NCBI GenBank assembly: GCA_001917135.1
Contig: MNTT01000008.1
Location: 78,564 to 142,563, forward strand
DNA length: 64,000 nucleotides
Direction of reading: 5' to 3'
Source: Acetobacter sp. 46_36
GTDB taxonomy: Bacteria > Pseudomonadota > Alphaproteobacteria > RF32 > CAG-239
Shown: positions 4,562-64,000 of the stretch, piece after piece
Position numbering within the stretch: the stretch's first letter is position 1
Layout: each line of letters starts with the position of its first letter
Position numbers and translations under genes: made by a program
The notes under the pieces: generated by a model
Told to the model about the DNA's origin: nothing
The model's database searches: none
Seen by the model: the letters and a program-made list of their open reading frames with translations, nothing else

Positions 4562-5608
4562 TCAGGAACGCTGGCTTTCCCTTTCCGCCCGCCGCAAAGC
4601 TATAAGCCGTACTAAATCATCATCACTGTGAAATGCCGCAGTCTCTTTTGCCGATGCACGGCTAAACGTCTGATTCTGATGTTGGTATTTCTCACAAAGG
4701 ATACGCTCTGTTTTCCGGCATTGTTCAAAATGGTTCTTCAAGCTCTGCGCCAAACTGTCGCGCCCGACGTTTTCCTGCCGGATGTCTACCGTTTCAAACT
4801 TTTTCTCCTGCACGGGGGAAATGTTAATTCCCTGTTTTTTCAATAATTCCCCGAACTGTTTCATCGTTTCCGGAGACAAATGACGGAGAGCCGCCTGCTG
4901 CGGCTGTTGACGCAGATAATCCGCCATGCGCTTTTGCACATTTTTATCCGCCAGTTTTGCCGTCATCCGCCGCAATTCGTTTTCCATACCCGAAAGTTTC
5001 ATTCCCGCCGCAGCTTTTTCCGTTTCCGTACCGCTGCGCAGCATCCTGCGGCGTTCCCTGTCAATACATTTGGCCAAATGCAGAATATATTTCTCCGTCT
5101 GGCTGTTTTTCCAATCTGCCTCGATAGCTTTCCGGTCGCTTTCGCGCAGCTCGCGCCACTTCGCTGCCTGTTCGGCGTTAAGCGGCCTGCCGCCGGCTTC
5201 TTTAAGCAGGAGCATACGCTGTTCCCGGTTCGCCGCCATAATAGCCGCCGTTTCCGCCGCATATCCGAGAGCCAGCAGGGTAACTGTATAATCCATAAGT
5301 TCCCGCGTTTCCTTCTCTTCCTGATTCAGCTTCTGTTCCTCTTCTTCCACAAAGCCGCGAACGTTTTCGTTGCCGTTTAAGACTTCCGTCGGAATAATGT
5401 CGCGATACCGGCTTTTAATCCATTCCGGAATATCCCGCCATATTTTATAATGGTTCTCGTGGCGCGAAAGAATGGTGGTTACGACATCGTCAGGCGCATT
5501 TTCAGCTGTTGCCCGCCGATAATCGTCAGGATAATTCGCATATAAAAATCTTTTAAAATCATTCGAACAATCTGCCATGACACGCCTCTTTCCAGCCGGT
5601 TTGCGCAT
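4562..5608 (-). CDS. Hypothetical charged, coiled-coil-rich protein (likely starts at internal Met, MADCSNDF)
   Basis: Long ORF on the minus strand with a highly charged, helical composition. No motif recognised. Confidence 0.45.
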   Translation of the reverse strand: MRKPAGKRRVMADCSNDFKRFLYANYPDDYRRATAENAPDDVVTTILSRHENHYKIWRDIPEWIKSRYRDIIPTEVLNGNENVRGFVEEEEQKLNQEEKETRELMDYTVTLLALGYAAETAAIMAANREQRMLLLKEAGGRPLNAEQAAKWRELRESDRKAIEADWKNSQTEKYILHLAKCIDRERRRMLRSGTETEKAAAGMKLSGMENELRRMTAKLADKNVQKRMADYLRQQPQQAALRHLSPETMKQFGELLKKQGINISPVQEKKFETVDIRQENVGRDSLAQSLKNHFEQCRKTERILCEKYQHQNQTFSRASAKETAAFHSDDDLVRLIALRRAERESQRS

Positions 5609-10299: not shown

Positions 10300-10354
10300 T
10301 TGCCGCTTTTTCTCTGGAAAAGCCCCGCCGTTCCGTCATAACCTCCGGCAGCCA

Positions 10355-10483
10355 ATTTAATCCCTGATAAAACTCGGACTGACCAAACTGAAAAATCCGC
10401 CGCAATCTCCGGCGGCTAACTCAATCCCTGATAAGCCCCAGACTAACAAAGCTGAAAAATCCGCTACAGTCTTCAGCGGCTGA
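10355..10483. repeat. About 64-bp intergenic direct repeat (2 copies), each with an internal hairpin
   Basis: First copy: caatttaatccctgataaaactcggactgaccaaactgaaaaatccgccgcaatctccggcggct. Second copy: aactcaatccctgataagccccagactaacaaagctgaaaaatccgctacagtcttcagcggctg. Each contains an inverted repeat (ccgccg..cggcgg / ccgctg..cagcgg). Lies downstream of the convergent ABC ATPase gene. Confidence 0.6.
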
Positions 10484-10518
10484 TTCAATCACCTGCGTCT
10501 GGTTCAACCCTCCGACAG

Positions 10519-13183: not shown

Positions 13184-15532
13184 TTATTCCGCAACATTTC
13201 CGCTTTCGGGAACTGTCGCAGCCTCCGATGCCTCATTCATTTTCTGAACATCCCCTGCACCCGGCGCAATCATATCCGCCGATACATCCCCTGCGCCCGG
13301 CACAACCGTATCTCCTGATACAACATCTGCCCCCGGCGCAACATTAACTCCTGACACATTTTCAACACCCGGAACAACCACTGCTCCGGTGGCATTCTCT
13401 GCGCCCGGAACAGCCGTATCCCCTGGCACAGCCTCGGCCTCAGATGCCGCATCTTCCTCCGGCGCGTCCGTTCCCGAAATGCCGTTGCTGCCGGGATTAA
13501 ACGAACGGATTTCCCCGTTATCGTCCATCTCCAAAATCAAATCATCAGTCGGTACAAAAATATTACTGTCATGAATTCGGCTGCCGTTTCTCCTCTGCTC
13601 GGCATTCTGTACCGGCTGTTCTCGTACGGCATTCTGCTGACTCAATCGTCGTGCCTGTTCCTGTGCCTTGCGCAGCTTTTCCTGATAAGCGCGGCTCTTT
13701 TGCTTATACTCCGCATACCAGTCCTGATAGTTGGCGGCAATGTTGGAAATCTTGCTGCCGCGAATAACCGAATTATTAATCAGGTTTTGCTTCAGGCTCA
13801 ACGCTTCGTCTGTTTTTAAATTCATATTGTCAATTGAATAACAGTAGTCCTGATACCGGATAAGCGTCTTGGTAAAATCGCTAGCCAGACAAATATTCGC
13901 ATTAATCAGAAACTTGGGGCGTTTCCCTTTGCGAATAGCCAGGTTGACCAACTGGTCTTTGACAAAGTTTCCGTATCTGCCGCCGGTCATTCCCGCCAAT
14001 TCGCGGATTGTGCTGACGCCCTGGATGATAATGTCGGTTTTGGCATTTTTATAACTTTCGGTAACAATATCCATATACTCCTGAAGTTTCCCAATAGCAC
14101 ATTTCGCCTGATCGGCATACGCCTTACGCTTTTCGTCTATTCCCCCGTTGGCAAGAGAATTGTCTTTCAAAGCGACCCATTCTTTTCTCGGCTTCAGGTT
14201 GCAGAATTCGTCATACATATAAATATCTGAGGGCAAATCCACATAAATCATATACACCTGCCCGGCTTTATCCCGGCTGAAATCCTCGCCGGCTTCGTCT
14301 ACCACCGCCGGTGCCCCTTCCAACGAGACCCTCCGGTTTTCAGCCGTTACCTTAATACCCTTCAGCGGCGACATTCCCGCCAGCATTTTGGCAACAGATT
14401 TCAAATCGCGGCTCTTCAGGCTGAGTATCCACTCCGTCAGCAGAGCATAAACGTTCTGTTCCACCGTCCGGTTTTTATCATAAACCGGCACCGTCTTATA
14501 GCTCTTAATGACGCAGCGGTCGGTATTCAGGCTCCCGCCTTTGATGCAGGTATTGAATCCCGGCATTGCATAAGTGCTGATGCCGTATCCGTTTTCCCAC
14601 AGATAATCATACAGCCGGTTCTCCTCCAGACTGAAATAATCCAATCCGCCGTGTATAAAATCCCAGCTGTTGATAAATTCCGAATAAGCGCGGTTGCCGC
14701 TGGTCGTGCTCGTATAATCGACCTGATTAAAAATATCAATCATATTGCTGACCGTTTCGTTCTTTTTGACAAACGCGTTCGGATAAATCTCAAAATTGTT
14801 CAGGGCATAAAAACCGACCATCAAATCCCGCAGTTCACGGAAATTATGGTCGCGGATGCTGTTCAAAAACTGATATGACGGGAACTTCGGCAGCATAAAA
14901 TAAACCAGATTGCCTTCCCTTTCCTCGCCGACTTTTGCCCCCAGCGCCTTAATTTCGCTGTATTCTCCTTTCGGCTGGGGTAGAAATTCGTTTTTCTTAA
15001 TCCCGATAAGGCCGGCAAACATCAGTACCATCGTAATAAAGAGCATGGCAAACGTCGACCTGAACGCAAAAAAGATAATAACGCCCAGCAGCAGCCCTAC
15101 CAGCCAAGCCGCCGGAACTATCCCGATAAACGTGAGCCAGCTGGCCTTTTTCTCCAGCCATTCCTCAATAAAAGTATCGACGTTAAACAGCGCAAACTGG
15201 TTAAAAAATACCACGACAATCAGCATTGTTACCAGCGCGCAAACGCCGTTCTGCAAATCCTTGGAAAAAGACAGCAGCAATATCAGGACAAACGAAAAGG
15301 CAAATATGCCGCCCAAAATAAATAACACAGCCTGATTAAAGGTTCCCCCCTCAATCAGCTTGCCGTTTATGGAATAGATAAACATCGCAAAATCTATTGC
15401 AAACAGCAAAAAGATATAAAACACCCGCAGCATTTTGTCATAAAAACGGTTGGCATCTCCCGACCAGCTGGCAAAACGGCTGGAACGGCTTTTTTTTCTC
15501 AAAACCAAAGGCTGGTTCACCCCTTCGCTCAT
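13184..15532 (-). CDS. Large membrane-anchored protein (782 aa) with C-terminal 12-residue tandem repeats; possible alkaline-phosphatase-superfamily exodomain
   Basis: About 5 N-terminal TM helices, then a large hydrophilic domain, then a tail of (V/A)PGxxxxxGxxV-type 12-aa repeats. It is the first gene of an apparent operon with the ABC permease and ATPase genes. Confidence 0.5.
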   Translation of the reverse strand: MSEGVNQPLVLRKKSRSSRFASWSGDANRFYDKMLRVFYIFLLFAIDFAMFIYSINGKLIEGGTFNQAVLFILGGIFAFSFVLILLLSFSKDLQNGVCALVTMLIVVVFFNQFALFNVDTFIEEWLEKKASWLTFIGIVPAAWLVGLLLGVIIFFAFRSTFAMLFITMVLMFAGLIGIKKNEFLPQPKGEYSEIKALGAKVGEEREGNLVYFMLPKFPSYQFLNSIRDHNFRELRDLMVGFYALNNFEIYPNAFVKKNETVSNMIDIFNQVDYTSTTSGNRAYSEFINSWDFIHGGLDYFSLEENRLYDYLWENGYGISTYAMPGFNTCIKGGSLNTDRCVIKSYKTVPVYDKNRTVEQNVYALLTEWILSLKSRDLKSVAKMLAGMSPLKGIKVTAENRRVSLEGAPAVVDEAGEDFSRDKAGQVYMIYVDLPSDIYMYDEFCNLKPRKEWVALKDNSLANGGIDEKRKAYADQAKCAIGKLQEYMDIVTESYKNAKTDIIIQGVSTIRELAGMTGGRYGNFVKDQLVNLAIRKGKRPKFLINANICLASDFTKTLIRYQDYCYSIDNMNLKTDEALSLKQNLINNSVIRGSKISNIAANYQDWYAEYKQKSRAYQEKLRKAQEQARRLSQQNAVREQPVQNAEQRRNGSRIHDSNIFVPTDDLILEMDDNGEIRSFNPGSNGISGTDAPEEDAASEAEAVPGDTAVPGAENATGAVVVPGVENVSGVNVAPGADVVSGDTVVPGAGDVSADMIAPGAGDVQKMNEASEAATVPESGNVAE
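13250..13429. repeat. 36-bp imperfect tandem repeat, at least 5 units, inside the 3' end of the 782-aa CDS
   Basis: Units: catcccctgcacccggcgcaatcatatccgccgata / catcccctgcgcccggcacaaccgtatctcctgata / caacatctgcccccggcgcaacattaactcctgaca / ... The unit length of 36 bp equals 12 codons, so the repeat stays in frame. Confidence 0.8.
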
Positions 15533-17094: not shown

Positions 17095-18168
17095 TTAAAG
17101 CTGCAATGCCTTAAAATCTTCATCCGTAAAAATATCAAAATCTCCATCTTCGGTATCGTCATTCCCCGCAATGCCATTCTCCGACGCACCATTATTCTCG
17201 GCACCATTATTCGCCGCACCATTCTCCGCTGCATCGCTCTTTTCGGTACCGTTCTTCTCCGCGCCATTACCCGTAGCATCATTCCCTGCCGCACCATTCT
17301 CCGCTGCGTCGCTCTTTTCGGTACCGTTCTTCTCCGCGCGATTACCCGCAGCATCATTCCCCGCTACACCATTATTCACCGCACTATTTTCCACAACATC
17401 ACTGCCCGAAAATAATACTTCGTCGGCCGGACCATCCGCATTATTTTCCTGCTGTTGATTTAAAAAGCTGGCCAGGCCGCCTGCTGAAGCCCCGCTTTTT
17501 TCCAGCATTTCTGTCTGATTTTGCAAAGCGGTGCCGCCGGAGCGCTGTTCAGCTTCAGAAGGCTCCTGCACTGGCACATTCTTCGCCCCGACCCGAGATT
17601 CATTCTCCGTTGCCTCAAGCGTCACCTTCCCGGGTTCAGCGGCTGTACCGACTGTTTTATCGGCAGAGGCGCCTTTCCGTTTAAACCCTTTCTTTCTTTT
17701 TTTCAAATCTTCTTTCGCCTGCTCGATTTTGACGTCCCTGTCGATTTTTTCATTATAATTTTCACTTTTCGGACGCGCAGCCTCTGCTTTTTCTTCTTCC
17801 ATCTTTTTCTTTGCCGCCGTTATTTCATCAATAACCGCCTGCGGAATATAATCCGTCTTCCCGCTCTCGACCGCTTTGGTTACAAATTCAAATTTCGCCG
17901 CCTTATACTTGGCCTCATACCAGGTCAGAATATCTTCCGGCTTAACGCCCTGGCTTATCGGGTAATACGCCGCCCCGCCCGCAACTGCACATAATAGAAA
18001 CAATACCCAAAACGGATGCCGCAAAATAAACAGCAGCATAAAAATCGGAAATGTAATAATGGTGAGGATAATATAAAAAAACTTAAATATCCCGCTTCTT
18101 TCTTTTGTTTCTGCCATAACACCCCTGCCTTTTTCCGGTCGGCATACAACCGCCGAAATGAATACCAT
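17095..18168 (-). CDS. Membrane protein with a Lys/Glu-rich linker and an acidic Asn/Gly/Ala-rich repetitive C-terminal tail (probable start at internal Met, about 18117)
   Basis: After the probable start (MAETKERSG...) come two TM helices. The C-terminus carries 25-aa tandem repeats (AENGAAGNDATGNGAEKNGTEKSDA) encoded by a 75-bp repeat. Confidence 0.5.
   Translation of the reverse strand: MVFISAVVCRPEKGRGVMAETKERSGIFKFFYIILTIITFPIFMLLFILRHPFWVLFLLCAVAGGAAYYPISQGVKPEDILTWYEAKYKAAKFEFVTKAVESGKTDYIPQAVIDEITAAKKKMEEEKAEAARPKSENYNEKIDRDVKIEQAKEDLKKRKKGFKRKGASADKTVGTAAEPGKVTLEATENESRVGAKNVPVQEPSEAEQRSGGTALQNQTEMLEKSGASAGGLASFLNQQQENNADGPADEVLFSGSDVVENSAVNNGVAGNDAAGNRAEKNGTEKSDAAENGAAGNDATGNGAEKNGTEKSDAAENGAANNGAENNGASENGIAGNDDTEDGDFDIFTDEDFKALQL
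17216..17365. repeat. 75-bp tandem direct repeat (2 units) within the 3' part of the 17095-18168 CDS
   Basis: Unit: gcaccattctccgctgc(a/g)tcgctcttttcggtaccgttcttctccgcgc(c/g)attacccg(t/c)agcatcattcc(c/c)(t/c)gc(c/t). The two copies are nearly identical. Confidence 0.8.
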
Positions 18169-32423: not shown

Positions 32424-32574
32424 TCCCCAAAACTGTTAATCCATCTGCAAAACTGGTTGTTTCACCTGCAAAACTATTTGCCCCGGCCTTAAAACTATTT
32501 GCCTCGCCGGCAAAAACTATTTGCTTTATCCGCAAAAAACTATTTGCCTTATCTGTAAAATTATGTTAGATTCG
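32424..32574 (+). promoter_or_regulatory. Array of about seven 22-bp direct repeats (core AAAACTATTTGCC), iteron- or operator-like
   Basis: Copies: ccccaaaactgttaatcc / ctgcaaaactggttgtttcac / ctgcaaaactatttgccccggc / cttaaaactatttgcctcgccgg / caaaaactatttgctttatccg / caaaaaactatttgccttatctg / taaaattatgttagattcg. The array sits between divergent ppa and the 506-aa orphan gene, ending at the latter's putative -35/-10 region. Confidence 0.6.
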
Positions 32575-44579: not shown

Positions 44580-44770
44580 TTTTCCGCCCGCACATTAACC
44601 GCTCGCCGGCACCTGTCCCCCTCCGCCGTTTTTCCGTACTTGTCCTCCCCGTCTGTTTCTCCGTTCTTATTCTCTCAGTCGTTTTCCGTTTTTATCTTCC
44701 CAGCCGTTTTCCCATTCTTCTCCTCCCTGCCGTTTTTCCGCCTTTGTCCTTTCAATCGGCTTTGCCTGCC
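44580..44770. repeat. Pyrimidine-rich (C/T) low-complexity tract on the + strand
   Basis: cccctccgccgtttttccgtacttgtcctccccgtctgtttctccgttcttattctctcagtcgttttccgtttttatcttcccagccgttttcccattcttctcctccctgccgtttttccgcctttgtcctttc. Similar in composition to 15600-15870. Confidence 0.7.
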
Positions 44771-56994: not shown

Positions 56995-57113
56995 AATCCC
57001 CCCGCGCCCGCATTATATTAAAAACCGGCAGATATTCCGGCATTTCAACACTAAAACGCCAGCAGATATTCCGGCATTTTAACACAAAAGCAGCAGCAAA
57101 AGGAGGATACGAT

Positions 57114-58462: not shown

Positions 58463-59116
58463 TTAAAACAATGTCAGAATATTGCAAGCCTGTTTTTCTT
58501 CGCTGCAGACATTGCATAAACTTTCAATATCGGCAGCATTTATTCTCTCTATACAATTCCGGGAATCTCTGCAATATTGGCACCCCATATACCAGTCAGA
58601 ACCGTTATTCCAGCTGTCGTTCCGCTTTTCGGCTACTCTGATTGCAAAAATTCTGTCGCAGTTAGGAATAATAACATTATGAAAAACCAGCCTGCAAAAT
58701 TCTGCCGTTTCTTTTCCCTTTCTTTGTGAAAGCACAAAATCAATATCAACACGCCGATTGAAGCTGAAAGACATCAAATCGTTACGGACAAACGGGACTA
58801 TATGATTGCCCAGTCTGTCAGAAAAACGATTTCCAGATACAGTCCATGAGGACGGCAGCATCCCCCATTCTTCCATATATGGTCCGATATATAAATGGCC
58901 GCTGCTTTGCTTTGACATCATCTTTATCCAGTCTTTTTCATAAACTAACATTTCTGAAATAAACAGATTATACTCTTCGGTACATTTAATCGCTTTCCAC
59001 CTGAACACAGCCTTCCCGAATTCGGCAATGGCGCCAGCCGACAAAACGCCGACAATAGCCAAAACACCAAGCATCTCAATCATTGAACGCCCGGCCTGAT
59101 TAGATTTTATACTCAT
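58463..59116 (-). CDS. Prepilin-type N-terminal domain protein (orphan type IV pilin/pseudopilin-like), Cys-rich C-terminus
   Basis: N-terminus MSIKSNQAGRSMIEMLGVLAIVGVLSAGAIA carries the class III signal (G-1, E+5, hydrophobic helix). The globular part (about 185 aa) has 10 Cys. No pilus-assembly genes are nearby. Confidence 0.55.
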   Translation of the reverse strand: MSIKSNQAGRSMIEMLGVLAIVGVLSAGAIAEFGKAVFRWKAIKCTEEYNLFISEMLVYEKDWIKMMSKQSSGHLYIGPYMEEWGMLPSSWTVSGNRFSDRLGNHIVPFVRNDLMSFSFNRRVDIDFVLSQRKGKETAEFCRLVFHNVIIPNCDRIFAIRVAEKRNDSWNNGSDWYMGCQYCRDSRNCIERINAADIESLCNVCSEEKQACNILTLF

Positions 59117-61035: not shown

Positions 61036-62559
61036 CTAAAAAGCCTTGAACAATCTCCCCCACTCAATATCATTGCCGACAATCAGCGCTATTGCCACAC
61101 AACAATAAGTATATGTTATAAGGGCATTAATTGTCGTCCCCCCGGCTCTTTTCACTAAAAAGCGGCGGAATTTTCTGATCATCCAATGCAAAAAATTAAA
61201 GAACAGGATGCAGGCAATCAGCTGCAAAGATATCCCCAGCCCCTTCAACTCCGTTTTGTACTCCAAGGCCGCCCGCGGCAAAAACGTCATCAACAGGCTG
61301 TAAAACATAACCAGAAAATACGTTACCCGCATCGCACGCTTTTCGCTCTGCATATGTTCGATTTTATCTTTTTCCAAACTTTCCCGCGACAGTTTTTTCA
61401 GTTCGAATCCGCGGATTTTCCGGGGCTCTGCCTGTTTTTCCTTAATCGTTTTCAAATTTGCCTTAAGCCGTTCTTCGGCCACGCATAACCCGCATCCCTT
61501 ATTGGTAAAATATGCGTGGTTGGGATTCTTTTTGCAATGTTTCAGATTCTTCAGCAAAAAATCCAATTCAGCCTGCCATTCTGCCGCTGTCGGACGTTTT
61601 TGCCCCTTAACAAATGCCCGGTCAAACAGCTTCATCGTGCTCTGCGGCAAAAACTCGTGAATACTGTACGGATGCGGTGCCTGATAGCTGTCACCCCACA
61701 TACCGTAGGCATAATGGTACTGTTCTATTCGCTCCTGTATGGAAAGCGCGCTGTCCGCATTTTTTTTCGCCACGCCGGAAAACGGATGGATGCCGTTGTT
61801 CAACAGCTTGAAAATAATCACCGCCAGGGCAAATTTATCCTGCTCTTCGCCCATATCCTCGCAGGATTGGGCCATTCCTTCGGGATAAATATATTCCTCG
61901 CTGACAAATTCCGCCGGAAACCGCGCCTGCTCGCCCTGAATCGAAAAACCGTCGCAGTCAAACATGGCCACCGTCATCGTTTTTTTGTAAATAGAAACGT
62001 TCGCCGGTTTCAAATCAATGATATAATGCCCGTATTTATGCAGTGATGCCACCATCAACGCCACGTTGTATGCCGCCATAACCCGGTATTCGTACTTGTC
62101 GCTGAGGCCGAGCTTGGCACGAACCGCCCCTTGCATCAGATGGTCAAGGGACACCGCTTCCGCCGTATTGATAAAAGGCATCAGATACCCGACACAATAC
62201 CCTTCGTCATCTTCCAAAACCGCTTCCGGCCAGGCAATCTGCACATACTCTACCCCGCCTGCACGTACGCTCGGAATATTCGGATTGTTTACCACCATCG
62301 CTTCCAGTTTCAGGCGGTTGGTATTGCTCTTCTGCCGTTCATGAAAAATCTTCGCTACTTTCGCCGGCTGTCCGACAATTTCATAAATTTTTCCCGCTGC
62401 ACCACCCTTGTTCAAGAGCTTACCAAGCGTCAGCCGTTCAAAATGTCTGTCCGCAAAAATCGCATTAACCTGAAGCTGTGCCGTATCTTCTGCCATCACC
62501 GTAACCCTGCTCATAAAATCGCTGTAACCTTGCCTGTAAATCTCTATAGCCCTGCTCAT
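61036..62559 (-). CDS. Hanks-type Ser/Thr protein kinase with a C-terminal TM segment
   Basis: Catalytic loop HYIIDLKPANV (HxDLKPxN), Lys-containing beta3 (AKIF), DFG-like DCDGF, and a C-terminal hydrophobic region. Alternative Met starts lie 15 and 21 codons downstream. Confidence 0.7.
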   Translation of the reverse strand: MSRAIEIYRQGYSDFMSRVTVMAEDTAQLQVNAIFADRHFERLTLGKLLNKGGAAGKIYEIVGQPAKVAKIFHERQKSNTNRLKLEAMVVNNPNIPSVRAGGVEYVQIAWPEAVLEDDEGYCVGYLMPFINTAEAVSLDHLMQGAVRAKLGLSDKYEYRVMAAYNVALMVASLHKYGHYIIDLKPANVSIYKKTMTVAMFDCDGFSIQGEQARFPAEFVSEEYIYPEGMAQSCEDMGEEQDKFALAVIIFKLLNNGIHPFSGVAKKNADSALSIQERIEQYHYAYGMWGDSYQAPHPYSIHEFLPQSTMKLFDRAFVKGQKRPTAAEWQAELDFLLKNLKHCKKNPNHAYFTNKGCGLCVAEERLKANLKTIKEKQAEPRKIRGFELKKLSRESLEKDKIEHMQSEKRAMRVTYFLVMFYSLLMTFLPRAALEYKTELKGLGISLQLIACILFFNFLHWMIRKFRRFLVKRAGGTTINALITYTYCCVAIALIVGNDIEWGRLFKAF

Positions 62560-62600
62560 AAAATCGCTGTAACCTTACCCGTAAATCTCTATAGCCCTGC
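62505..62600. repeat. 45-bp tandem direct repeat (2 full units plus a partial third) spanning the kinase start codon
   Basis: Unit 1 ccctgctcataaaatcgctgtaaccttgcctgtaaatctctatag occupies 62505-62549. Unit 2 (62550-62594) has two mismatches. ccctgcccac follows. On the minus strand each unit reads ATGAGCAGGGCTATAGAGATTTAC..., reproducing the MSRAIEIY start. Confidence 0.85.
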
Positions 62601-63398
62601 CCACAAAAAAGTCTTGTCATCAGAATTCAGTCGCCGCGCTTGTTTGGTATCCAGCGTATTGTTCAATGCCCGCAGCGCCTGCATCTTATTCTGTTCGCTT
62701 TTAAGATAACGGTTAATCGGCTCAATAAACCCGTTTTTCAACCGACATGCATCGTCCGACAGGGCAAAATTCGTAACCCCGTCCGTCATCAGAAACAATG
62801 CTTCCGCTTTGCTTATCTCCGTAAAACGGAGACAATCGCGCCAGTTGCTCATTGTATAAAAATATGTCTCACACGAAAAATTCCCGTTCGCCGGCCTGGA
62901 AAGCGTATAACGCAGCCCGGTCCCCACCGTCGTTTCGCCGTATACCGCAATGCCGGCACCATCACCGATATGAAAAAACAAACCGCGGTTCTTATGGTAA
63001 ACCGCTCCGACCAACGTCGCCGAAAAATTCAAAATTTCCGATTCCGATTTGCTTTTGTTTAACCGGTGAATGACAAGCCGCCGCCGCGCTATGTCAATTG
63101 CTTTTTTTACCGCCTCTTCCGCATCTTTCAGCGGCGTATTTATCAACACGTTGACCAGCGTTTCGCAAACAACTTTAGCCCCGATTTTGCCATATTTAGC
63201 CGACCCTGCGCCATCTGACACCACTGCCACGAGTTTATTGCCCGAACACGCATACTGGTAAAAATCCTGACACGGCTTTTTCTTGGCCAGATGCAGCCCT
63301 CCTGTAATTTTAGTCGCGATGACGCGGATGCTCCTAGGCGTTTTCTTCATGCCAGCCCTCAATATCGTCCAAAATATCGGGCATATTCGGCGCCGCAC
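62589..63398 (-). CDS. PP2C-family Ser/Thr protein phosphatase (probable start at internal Met MKKTPRS, about 63350)
   Basis: PP2C metal-binding motifs (..VAVVSDGAGSAKYG.., ..LFLMTDGVTNF..). Confidence 0.7.
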   Translation of the reverse strand: MRRRICPIFWTILRAGMKKTPRSIRVIATKITGGLHLAKKKPCQDFYQYACSGNKLVAVVSDGAGSAKYGKIGAKVVCETLVNVLINTPLKDAEEAVKKAIDIARRRLVIHRLNKSKSESEILNFSATLVGAVYHKNRGLFFHIGDGAGIAVYGETTVGTGLRYTLSRPANGNFSCETYFYTMSNWRDCLRFTEISKAEALFLMTDGVTNFALSDDACRLKNGFIEPINRYLKSEQNKMQALRALNNTLDTKQARRLNSDDKTFLWAGL

Positions 63399-63996
63399 GG
63401 GAAATACAGGACACGCTGCGCGACAGCCAAAGGAAAAACTCCGTAAACTTCAACCCGCTTAAACGCTTGGGTGCCATCAGCGAAAACTTAGCCAGCTTGT
63501 CCAGATTAGCCCCCTGCGTGCCAACCGCGTGGATAACGACTTTTTTATTCTGCTGCGCTTCCCGGCATTTTGCCGCCGCCAGTTCCCAGCCGTAATCCGT
63601 CGGTTCCCCGTCGCTGATAAGGAAAATCCACGGCCGTTTGGAGGTAATGCCGCAGCTGTCATACAGACATTTTTGTTCCTCTATTTTCTGCAGCGCCAGT
63701 TCCATTGCCTTGCCGATAGGCGACAGACCGGAGGCCTCCATAATCGGCGCGGTAAAATTCATCGCGTCAACCCAGTCCGCGGAAATTTCCGCATCGTCTT
63801 TGCCGTACGCCTTAATCACCAGCAGCTGTACGCGCGAACTGGCATCAATATCCTCTTTCAGTTCTTTTTCCAGCGCCTGCAACCCGGTATTCAGCTGTTT
63901 AATCGGTTCTCCGCGCATTGAACCCGAACAATCCAACACTAAAATGCACGGCGTCCGCTCGTTGGCATTTTCTGCAAATTCCACATAAGGAATCAT
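63334..63996 (-). CDS. von Willebrand factor A (vWA) domain protein, TerY-like
   Basis: MIDAS DxSxS (ILVLDCSGSMRG) plus downstream Thr/Asp MIDAS residues (..ISDGEPTD..). About 220 aa, with a 5' end very near the window edge. Confidence 0.75.
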   Translation of the reverse strand: MIPYVEFAENANERTPCILVLDCSGSMRGEPIKQLNTGLQALEKELKEDIDASSRVQLLVIKAYGKDDAEISADWVDAMNFTAPIMEASGLSPIGKAMELALQKIEEQKCLYDSCGITSKRPWIFLISDGEPTDYGWELAAAKCREAQQNKKVVIHAVGTQGANLDKLAKFSLMAPKRLSGLKFTEFFLWLSRSVSCISRAAPNMPDILDDIEGWHEENA

Positions 63997-64000
63997 AACG

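Follow-up and report, generated by a model that had tools for sequence, protein, structure and literature searches.

Close to the end of the window, by which we mean the whole 64-kb stretch of DNA analysed here, three consecutive and co-oriented minus-strand ORFs encode a vWA-domain protein, a PP2C-type phosphatase and a Ser/Thr protein kinase (Table 1). The vWA protein, which has 231 aa in conspecific loci, is encoded by a CDS that overlaps the start of the phosphatase gene by 17 nt. The C-terminal region of the kinase contains, by eye, a Cys/His cluster (HCKKNPNH...CGLC), which gave no model hit, and hydrophobic segments at the end of the protein. An operon with these three domains in this order is also what characterizes the TerY-P triad, defined as a TerY-like vWA protein, a PP2C phosphatase and a Ser/Thr kinase (PMC11090510); the kinase of the triad has a zinc ribbon fused to its C-terminus, or an OB fold in the defence version. 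However, the PADLOC models of defence systems left the vWA and PP2C proteins of the window unmatched, and the kinase gave only weak matches to PD-T4-6 (best E=1.5e-4). We therefore call the operon TerY-P-like by gene order only. It is the setting of the repeat described below, not the finding itself.

Table 1. Genes, repeat sub-units and other features at the phosphatase-kinase junction (window coordinates)
Feature	Coordinates	Strand	Details
Ser/Thr protein kinase CDS	61036..62496	-	486 aa from the conserved start; Pkinase PF00069
PP2C-type phosphatase CDS	62589..63350	-	253 aa; PP2C_2 PF13672, E=1.3e-35
vWA-domain protein CDS	63334..64000	-	Pfam VWA; start past the window end
Array, span reported by TRF	62505..62608		period 45
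Array, full extent	62496..62610	-	about five sub-units
Sub-unit s0, founder copy	62586..62610	-	TTTTTTGTGGGCAGGGCTATAGAGA, 25 nt as written; phosphatase tail and stop
Sub-unit s1	62563..62585	-	TTTACGGGTAAGGTTACAGCGAT; TAA 62577-62575, kinase frame
Sub-unit s2	62541..62562	-	TTTATGAGCAGGGCTATAGAGA; holds ATG 62559
Sub-unit s3	62518..62540	-	TTTACAGGCAAGGTTACAGCGAT; CAA 62532-62530
Sub-unit s4	62496..62517	-	TTTATGAGCAGGGTTACGGTGA; in-frame ATG 62514 and SD-like AGGG

The junction between the phosphatase and kinase genes is occupied by a tandem repeat. TRF describes 2.3 copies of a 45-nt period with 93% matches, no indels and a score of 180, and on the plus strand the 45-mers at 62505-62549 and 62550-62594 differ at two positions and are followed by a partial third copy. 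A tandem duplication had been placed here by the first-pass annotation, and both the sequence and TRF confirm it at that position. A second TRF period of 22/23 nt (4.7 copies, 67-68% match) reveals a finer organization, in which each 45-mer consists of two diverged 22/23-nt sub-units. About five sub-units, s0 to s4 on the minus strand, lie across an array that is wider than the span reported by TRF. Sub-unit s0 comprises the last seven codons (..TFLWAGL) and the stop TAG (62591-62589) of the phosphatase, so the end of this gene falls within the array. Read in the phosphatase frame, the later copies give AIL*AGL*, a decayed FLWAGL*, and s4 ends on the first letter (A) of the conserved kinase start codon, ATG 62496 (MAEDTAQLQVNAIF...). 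The whole array is composed of degenerate copies of the phosphatase 3´ end, inserted between its true stop and the kinase start. The first ATG past the phosphatase stop is ATG 62559, 29 nt downstream, and 15 nt separate a unit stop from the ATG that follows it. The annotation had every copy reading ATG AGC AGG GCT ATA GAG. One copy does, but the copy at ATG 62514 reads ATG AGC AGG GTT ACG GTG, and the third, partial copy, which lies inside the phosphatase gene, has GTG GGC at the ATG AGC position. The TAA that was said to prevent further extension in the upstream copy is present in s1.

The junction has a different appearance in related bacteria. A scan of one genome per species gave 56 loci at which a relative of the kinase is encoded. 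All are from uncultured gut or rumen Alphaproteobacteria, and the vWA-PP2C-kinase order is retained throughout. Fifty-five of these loci have a compact, repeat-free junction (CTATGA, TGATG, TAATG or a few bases between stop and start), where the conserved ...DDKTFLWAGL tail of the phosphatase directly adjoins the kinase ATG. The two next-closest species, L086 and L087 (89% and 84% kinase identity), were fetched separately; their junctions are likewise compact and repeat-free, and no proto-repeats were found when these were sought. The tail equivalent to s0 is conserved in 57 of 57 repeat-free relatives (the 55 species, L086 and L087). None of these 57 other species has the array, which was seen only in the species of the window and one sister species, UMGS1453 (L001; 93% protein and ~94% nucleotide identity), the only carrier among the 56 scanned loci. 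The array of L001 has seven sub-units (by TRF, 3.5 copies of 45 nt with 85% match). Its last sub-unit, s6, is an intact second copy of the phosphatase tail (TGGGCAGGGTTATAG) that adjoins the kinase ATG and is followed by TGATGG. This TGATGG is the ancestral junction, preserved on the kinase side, and in combination with the intact tail copy it points to an origin of the array by tandem duplication of the junction itself.

Taken together, the array is probably a lineage-specific and essentially non-coding intercistronic minisatellite that grew from the phosphatase-kinase junction. The ancestral junction had a PP2C stop and a kinase ATG that overlapped or touched, in the forms CTATGA, TGATG and TAATG. 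Such an overlapping or touching stop and start is the usual arrangement for translational coupling. Judging from the anatomy of the array, a tandem duplication of the terminal 22-23 nt of the phosphatase gene (TTTTTGTGGGCAGGGTTATAGnGA) would have taken place in the ancestor of the species and its sister. A likely cause is slipped-strand mispairing between the flanking short direct repeats TGGGCAG and TGGCAG, which bracket the first 22 nt and could plausibly have served as the slippage substrate. The copy would then have diverged, and the resulting 45-nt pair would have been duplicated again. At one end of the array, the founder sub-unit is still the true C-terminus and stop of the phosphatase. 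At the other end, the last sub-unit remains next to the original kinase start, ATG 62496, for which it provides a weak Shine-Dalgarno (SD) sequence. Between these two lie dead remnants, interrupted by stops in both the phosphatase and the kinase frames.

Copy number varies between strains, as the first-pass annotation had proposed, with one or two units within the species and three in the sister species. The conspecific sample consisted of ~58 loci of ~99% nucleotide identity, obtained from exact-protein look-ups and one metagenome DNA scan, a few being the same contig fetched twice. We labelled alleles by the variable bases of s1 and s3, TTTAC[G/A]GG[T/C]AAGG; the G unit and the A unit both carry TAA. 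One-unit arrays occur at 36 loci, either as TTTACAGGTAAGG (22 loci) or as TTTACGGGTAAGG (13 loci and 1 point variant), and their share is about four fifths in less biased samples. Two-unit arrays occur at 22 loci and consist of a G unit followed by an A unit, the latter either with CAA (the window type, 17 loci including the window) or with TAA (3 loci, 1 point variant and 1 scaffold with Ns). Three units were seen at 2 loci, L001 and L085, from the sister species only. The distance from phosphatase stop to kinase start is 47, 92 or 137 nt with one, two or three units, and the expectation that copy number would alter the spacing of the two genes was thus borne out. An identical 486-aa kinase is found with one unit and with two, and gene callers assign 486, 492 or 507 aa to this one kinase gene according to the allele. 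With a head-to-tail unit of at least 10 bp and a copy number that differs between conspecific strains, the array has the attributes of a bacterial VNTR or minisatellite. It is retained in every conspecific and sister locus examined and was never lost, which may mean that it confers some advantage and is not purely neutral.

As a consequence of this expansion, a coupling-type junction, with -4 to +6 nt between stop and start in the relatives, has been turned into a spacer of 47-137 nt. Translational coupling works best when stop and start are -4 to +3 nt apart, and in most systems little of it is left beyond 30-40 nt (PMC12548453). With spacers of this length, translation of the kinase would be largely uncoupled from that of the phosphatase and would depend on an initiation signal of its own, namely the weak SD, which would be used more or less independently of the phosphatase. 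Homologue alignment, SD context and gene callers all favour ATG 62496 as the conserved kinase start. In L007, where the kinase ATG overlaps the phosphatase stop, the kinase begins with MTTETAQ, which aligns with MAEDTAQ in the window. An SD-like AGGG is found 8 nt upstream of ATG 62496 and forms an anti-SD duplex of -5.9 kcal/mol, within the range of the neighbouring genes (-4.3 to -11.6 kcal/mol). The only SD match of ATG 62559 and of ATG 62514 is an AAGG located 13 nt upstream (-4.3 kcal/mol), leaving ATG 62496 as the only one of the three with correct SD spacing. The exact 486-aa kinase occurs in 3352 indexed blocks of public assemblies, compared with 97 blocks for the 492-aa and 27 for the 507-aa form. 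We infer both the start codon in use and the effect on the kinase:phosphatase ratio from the sequence. Gain or loss of a unit had also been expected to alter the ribosome-binding context of the kinase. This is not the case: units are added upstream of s4, so the start context of ATG 62496 never changes, and the 22 nt that precede it are identical at every copy number. What copy number changes is, in all likelihood, the stop-to-start distance only.

One intriguing possibility is that ribosomes reinitiate from unit to unit in a MIRU-like manner, such that the kinase stays coupled to the phosphatase at any copy number. Each unit has an ATG, nine sense codons and a kinase-frame stop (ATG AGC AGR GYT AYR GWG ATT TAC RGG TAR), and ribosomes would move from the phosphatase stop to the ATG 29 nt downstream and from each unit stop to the next ATG 15 nt later. 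Residual coupling is reported at such spacings, and scanning ribosomes take the nearest start (PMC12548453). The unit stop varies between TAA and TAG among copies and species, yet a stop is found in all units but one, and the RNA of the one- and two-unit spacers is less structured than that of shuffled sequences (z=+1.78 and +2.09, respectively). However, the ATG and the stop recur with the repeated sequence itself and so provide no independent evidence, and the unit ATGs are without an SD apart from the distant AAGG. The common one-unit allele has no mini-ORF at all, and the window-type allele has lost the stop and is nevertheless present in many samples. The occurrence of the array in two species only leaves the comparison without power. 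We consider reinitiation along the units unlikely, and a shade more unlikely still that the array is not neutral but a locally born, MIRU-like translational device that passes ribosomes on from the end of the phosphatase gene to the start of the kinase gene. If ribosomes were relayed in this way, the kinase:phosphatase ratio of this vWA-PP2C-kinase signalling module would be heritable and differ from strain to strain, being determined by the number of units and by the TAA>CAA fusion allele.

The first-pass annotation regarded the repeat as coding, with gain and loss of units giving rise to functionally relevant alternative N-termini of the kinase. An in-frame extension is indeed open in the window allele, where ATG 62559 begins a 507-aa ORF (MSRAIEIYRQGYSDFMSRVTVMAED...) with no stop before the kinase. 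This form is annotated by some gene callers (e.g. at L070), and the N-terminal segment of the kinase tolerates large differences in length between species. In all other alleles the extension is closed: a kinase-frame TAA or TAG is present in every unit, including those of the other two-unit allele and the three units of L001, and a single T>C change, giving the CAA in s3, is what opens the frame in the window type. ATG 62559 moreover has no SD at the right distance, and the conserved start of the relatives is homologous to ATG 62496. Between the window and L001, the 15 nt that lead up to ATG 62496 differ by three substitutions, each of which alters an amino acid, whereas changes in the codons after it are mostly synonymous. 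Functional alternative N-termini therefore appear very unlikely to us. We think it likely that the 21-residue extension in the window allele is a by-product of the one TAA>CAA change and not a designed alternative N-terminus, and we favour a reading of the array as almost entirely non-coding. ATG 62514 and its equivalent in L001 are in frame in all alleles, and initiation there may give a kinase that is six residues longer.

Two other ways of translating the region were considered and rejected. An ORF of 51 aa in the third frame (62620-62465, MTRLFCGQGYRDL...) begins inside the phosphatase gene and is open in both the window and L001. Every difference between units or alleles is non-synonymous in this frame, and a unit of 15 codons is open by chance about half the time. 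We also discarded the idea that T TTT TTG, near the end of the phosphatase gene, is a site of programmed -1 frameshifting; the heptamer encodes the conserved TFL of ...DDKTFLWAGL in all relatives, and the -1 frame beyond it meets a TAA after 10 codons.

The repeats could alternatively act in cis, with the 22/23-nt motif serving either as a series of binding sites for a protein that recognizes DNA or RNA, or as a promoter inside the operon that drives the kinase gene. The motif is regularly spaced at about two helical turns, and the repeat-filled senX3-regX3 spacer of Mycobacterium shows promoter activity (PMC4213456). On the coding (minus) strand of the array, however, neither a sigma-70-like promoter nor a terminator was found, and a search of Rfam returned no match at E<=1. 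The spacer has no conserved RNA structure; the three-unit form has a z-score of -1.26 against shuffles, and the one- and two-unit forms tend, if at all, towards an unusual lack of structure. The motif clearly descends from the coding sequence of the phosphatase tail and was found nowhere else in the 64 kb. A cis-regulatory role is accordingly highly improbable in our judgement. The lack of an Rfam match and of a conserved fold also led us to reject an RNA element. A dispersed repeat family was rejected because there is no real second copy of the unit in the window, where the sole other match has 3 mismatches and looks like chance, and because the metagenome contigs that carry the motif (12 of 12) all represent the phosphatase-kinase junction.

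It was further suggested that the repeat could act as a phase-like switch. On this reading, frequent and reversible slippage by 45 bp would turn expression of the triad on and off. Strains do differ in copy number, including strains with the same kinase. However, the array is very unlikely to be a contingency locus, because its unit is long (45 nt, or 15 codons), is present in one to three copies and contains no promoter. The unit length is a multiple of 3, the copy-number states are few, and the repeats are not placed in a promoter spacer. Only four main array types are seen among the ~58 conspecific loci, each on diverse flanks, with within-group distances of 0-38 SNPs per 2800 nt (group medians 15-25) and between-group distances of 4-37 (medians 21-27). 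Products of recent slippage, i.e. G+G, A+A, a single CAA unit or more than two units in a conspecific, were not seen among these loci. In a first tree the window-type allele appeared to be one clone; this was a sampling effect and proved wrong with more loci, the flanks being diverse. The presence of its T>C change on different backgrounds implies that the allele is old and has been moved by recombination. The two one-unit types are the expected loss products of a two-unit G+A array, and a few ancient events would suffice to explain them. Copy-number variation thus appears to be slow, the one-, two- and three-unit alleles being old and stable variants in a recombining population. We give a switch hardly any chance; the array is most likely an ordinary length polymorphism.

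Finally, a collapsed or falsely duplicated repeat is almost certainly not the explanation: although some assemblers struggle here, as illustrated by a run of N inside the array in HMP scaffold L112, several assemblers have produced identical two-unit arrays with the same two diagnostic differences from >15 samples, and an array of ~105 nt with a longest exact internal repeat of ~30 nt can be spanned by single reads. We take the 45-bp repeat to be real because adjacent 45-mers with two differences exceed chance and because the identical array is present in >15 other samples; an artefact is effectively refuted, and copy number is not invariant.

Among known systems, the array comes closest to the MIRU array that separates senX3 from regX3 in the M. 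tuberculosis complex and consists of three 77-bp units in H37Rv and of two 77-bp units and one 53-bp unit in CDC1551 (PMC4213456). In both cases, tandem units (77/53 bp and 45 bp, within 40-100 bp) are located between co-transcribed signalling genes, vary in number between strains and include short ORFs that read in the same direction as the operon. MIRUs are interspersed and apparently mobile, and insert at start codons with their ORF coupled at a spacing of -4 (PMC12548453). In contrast, the unit described here is found at the phosphatase-kinase junction only, both in the 64 kb and in the 12 metagenome contigs, and visibly derives from the 3´ end of the upstream gene. Its internal ATGs and stops do not overlap but are separated by +29 and +15 nt. 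Location and polymorphism are shared with MIRUs, and two defining features are not. The junction may also be compared with overlapping gene pairs, of which the -4 ATGA and -1 TGATG/TAATG types are the commonest coupled arrangement (PMC12548453). The PP2C-kinase junction has this form in the 57 related species, whereas the two genes are 92 nt apart in the window, past the 30-40 nt over which coupling is usually lost. Ordinary bacterial VNTRs or minisatellites, as used in MLVA typing, have a head-to-tail unit of >10 bp in a few, strain-variable copies and originate by slippage or unequal recombination. The array has the unit length, the few copies and the strain variation of this class. What sets it apart is its exact position on a gene junction where start and stop overlap in all relatives, and a founder copy that is functional coding sequence. 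We would class the repeat as an ordinary bacterial minisatellite whose origin can be read with unusual ease.

The locus does not appear to reveal a new regulatory principle. It does give a clear view of the birth of a tandem repeat from a gene junction: the founder copy still serves as the functional end of the phosphatase gene, and the last copy still provides the context of the kinase start. The alleles and the repeat-free relatives constitute a natural series of spacers with 0, 1, 2 or 3 units between an antagonistic phosphatase-kinase pair, which is usable for tests of how stop-start distance affects coupling in a non-model gut bacterium. The repeat is, in addition, a usable strain marker for a widespread alphaproteobacterium of the human gut.

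The kinase that follows the 45-bp array has been given three lengths in public gene calls, 486, 492 and 507 aa, depending on both the allele and the caller (window 62496-62559). This is an annotation inconsistency, and its cause is the repeat. The array repeat is evidently also a breakpoint for some assemblers, judging from the 8 consecutive N found in sub-unit s1 of the two-unit array in L112 (HMP scaffold SRS014459).

Across species, the stretch of the kinase that precedes the conserved LQFNAIY motif ranges from ~5 to ~40 residues among the N-termini compared (see the table for two loci from other assemblies). The N-terminal region accepts insertions, also in loci that do not carry the repeat. 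At the opposite end of the protein (window 61036-61400), inspection of the translation by eye revealed a cluster of Cys and His residues (HCKKNPNH...CGLC) and, after it, three stretches that are hydrophobic. These features suggest that the kinase is anchored in the membrane, with a possible zinc ribbon.

Several tandem repeats besides the 45-bp array are present in the window and are listed in the table. GC skew is negative in all 2-kb bins of window 1-64000, ranging from -0.06 to -0.31. At its N-terminus (..GRSMIEMLGVLAIVGVLSAGAIAEF), a 217-aa ORF (58463-59116, minus strand) resembles type IV pilins; the records of conspecific loci list no Pfam family for it.

Tandem repeats of the window and variable kinase N-terminal regions in two compared loci
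Feature	Sequence	Position	Unit and copies	Match
Tandem repeat	window	10332-10495	64 nt x2.5	
Tandem repeat	window	13248-13358	36 nt x2.9	
Tandem repeat	window	17212-17373	75 nt x2.2	91%
Tandem repeat	window	32447-32560	21-23 nt x3-5	
Tandem repeat	window	44625-44740	26 nt x4.5	
Tandem repeat	window	57020-57098	34 nt x2.4	
Variable kinase N-terminal region	L009	~4917-5019		
Variable kinase N-terminal region	L017	~4893-5001		

Upstream of the triad of vWA-domain protein, phosphatase and kinase genes, and beyond the window, a 13-nt tandem repeat is located 3' of an autotransporter gene (269-323 in L059 and 371-436 in L063, both compared loci from other assemblies). It is present in 4.2 copies in the former vs 5.1 in the latter, and the gene that comes after it starts at 613, 670 or 726 in the conspecific loci compared. 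With the copies of the 13-nt repeat differing and the start of the downstream gene shifting, there are thus more length polymorphisms near the triad in this species.
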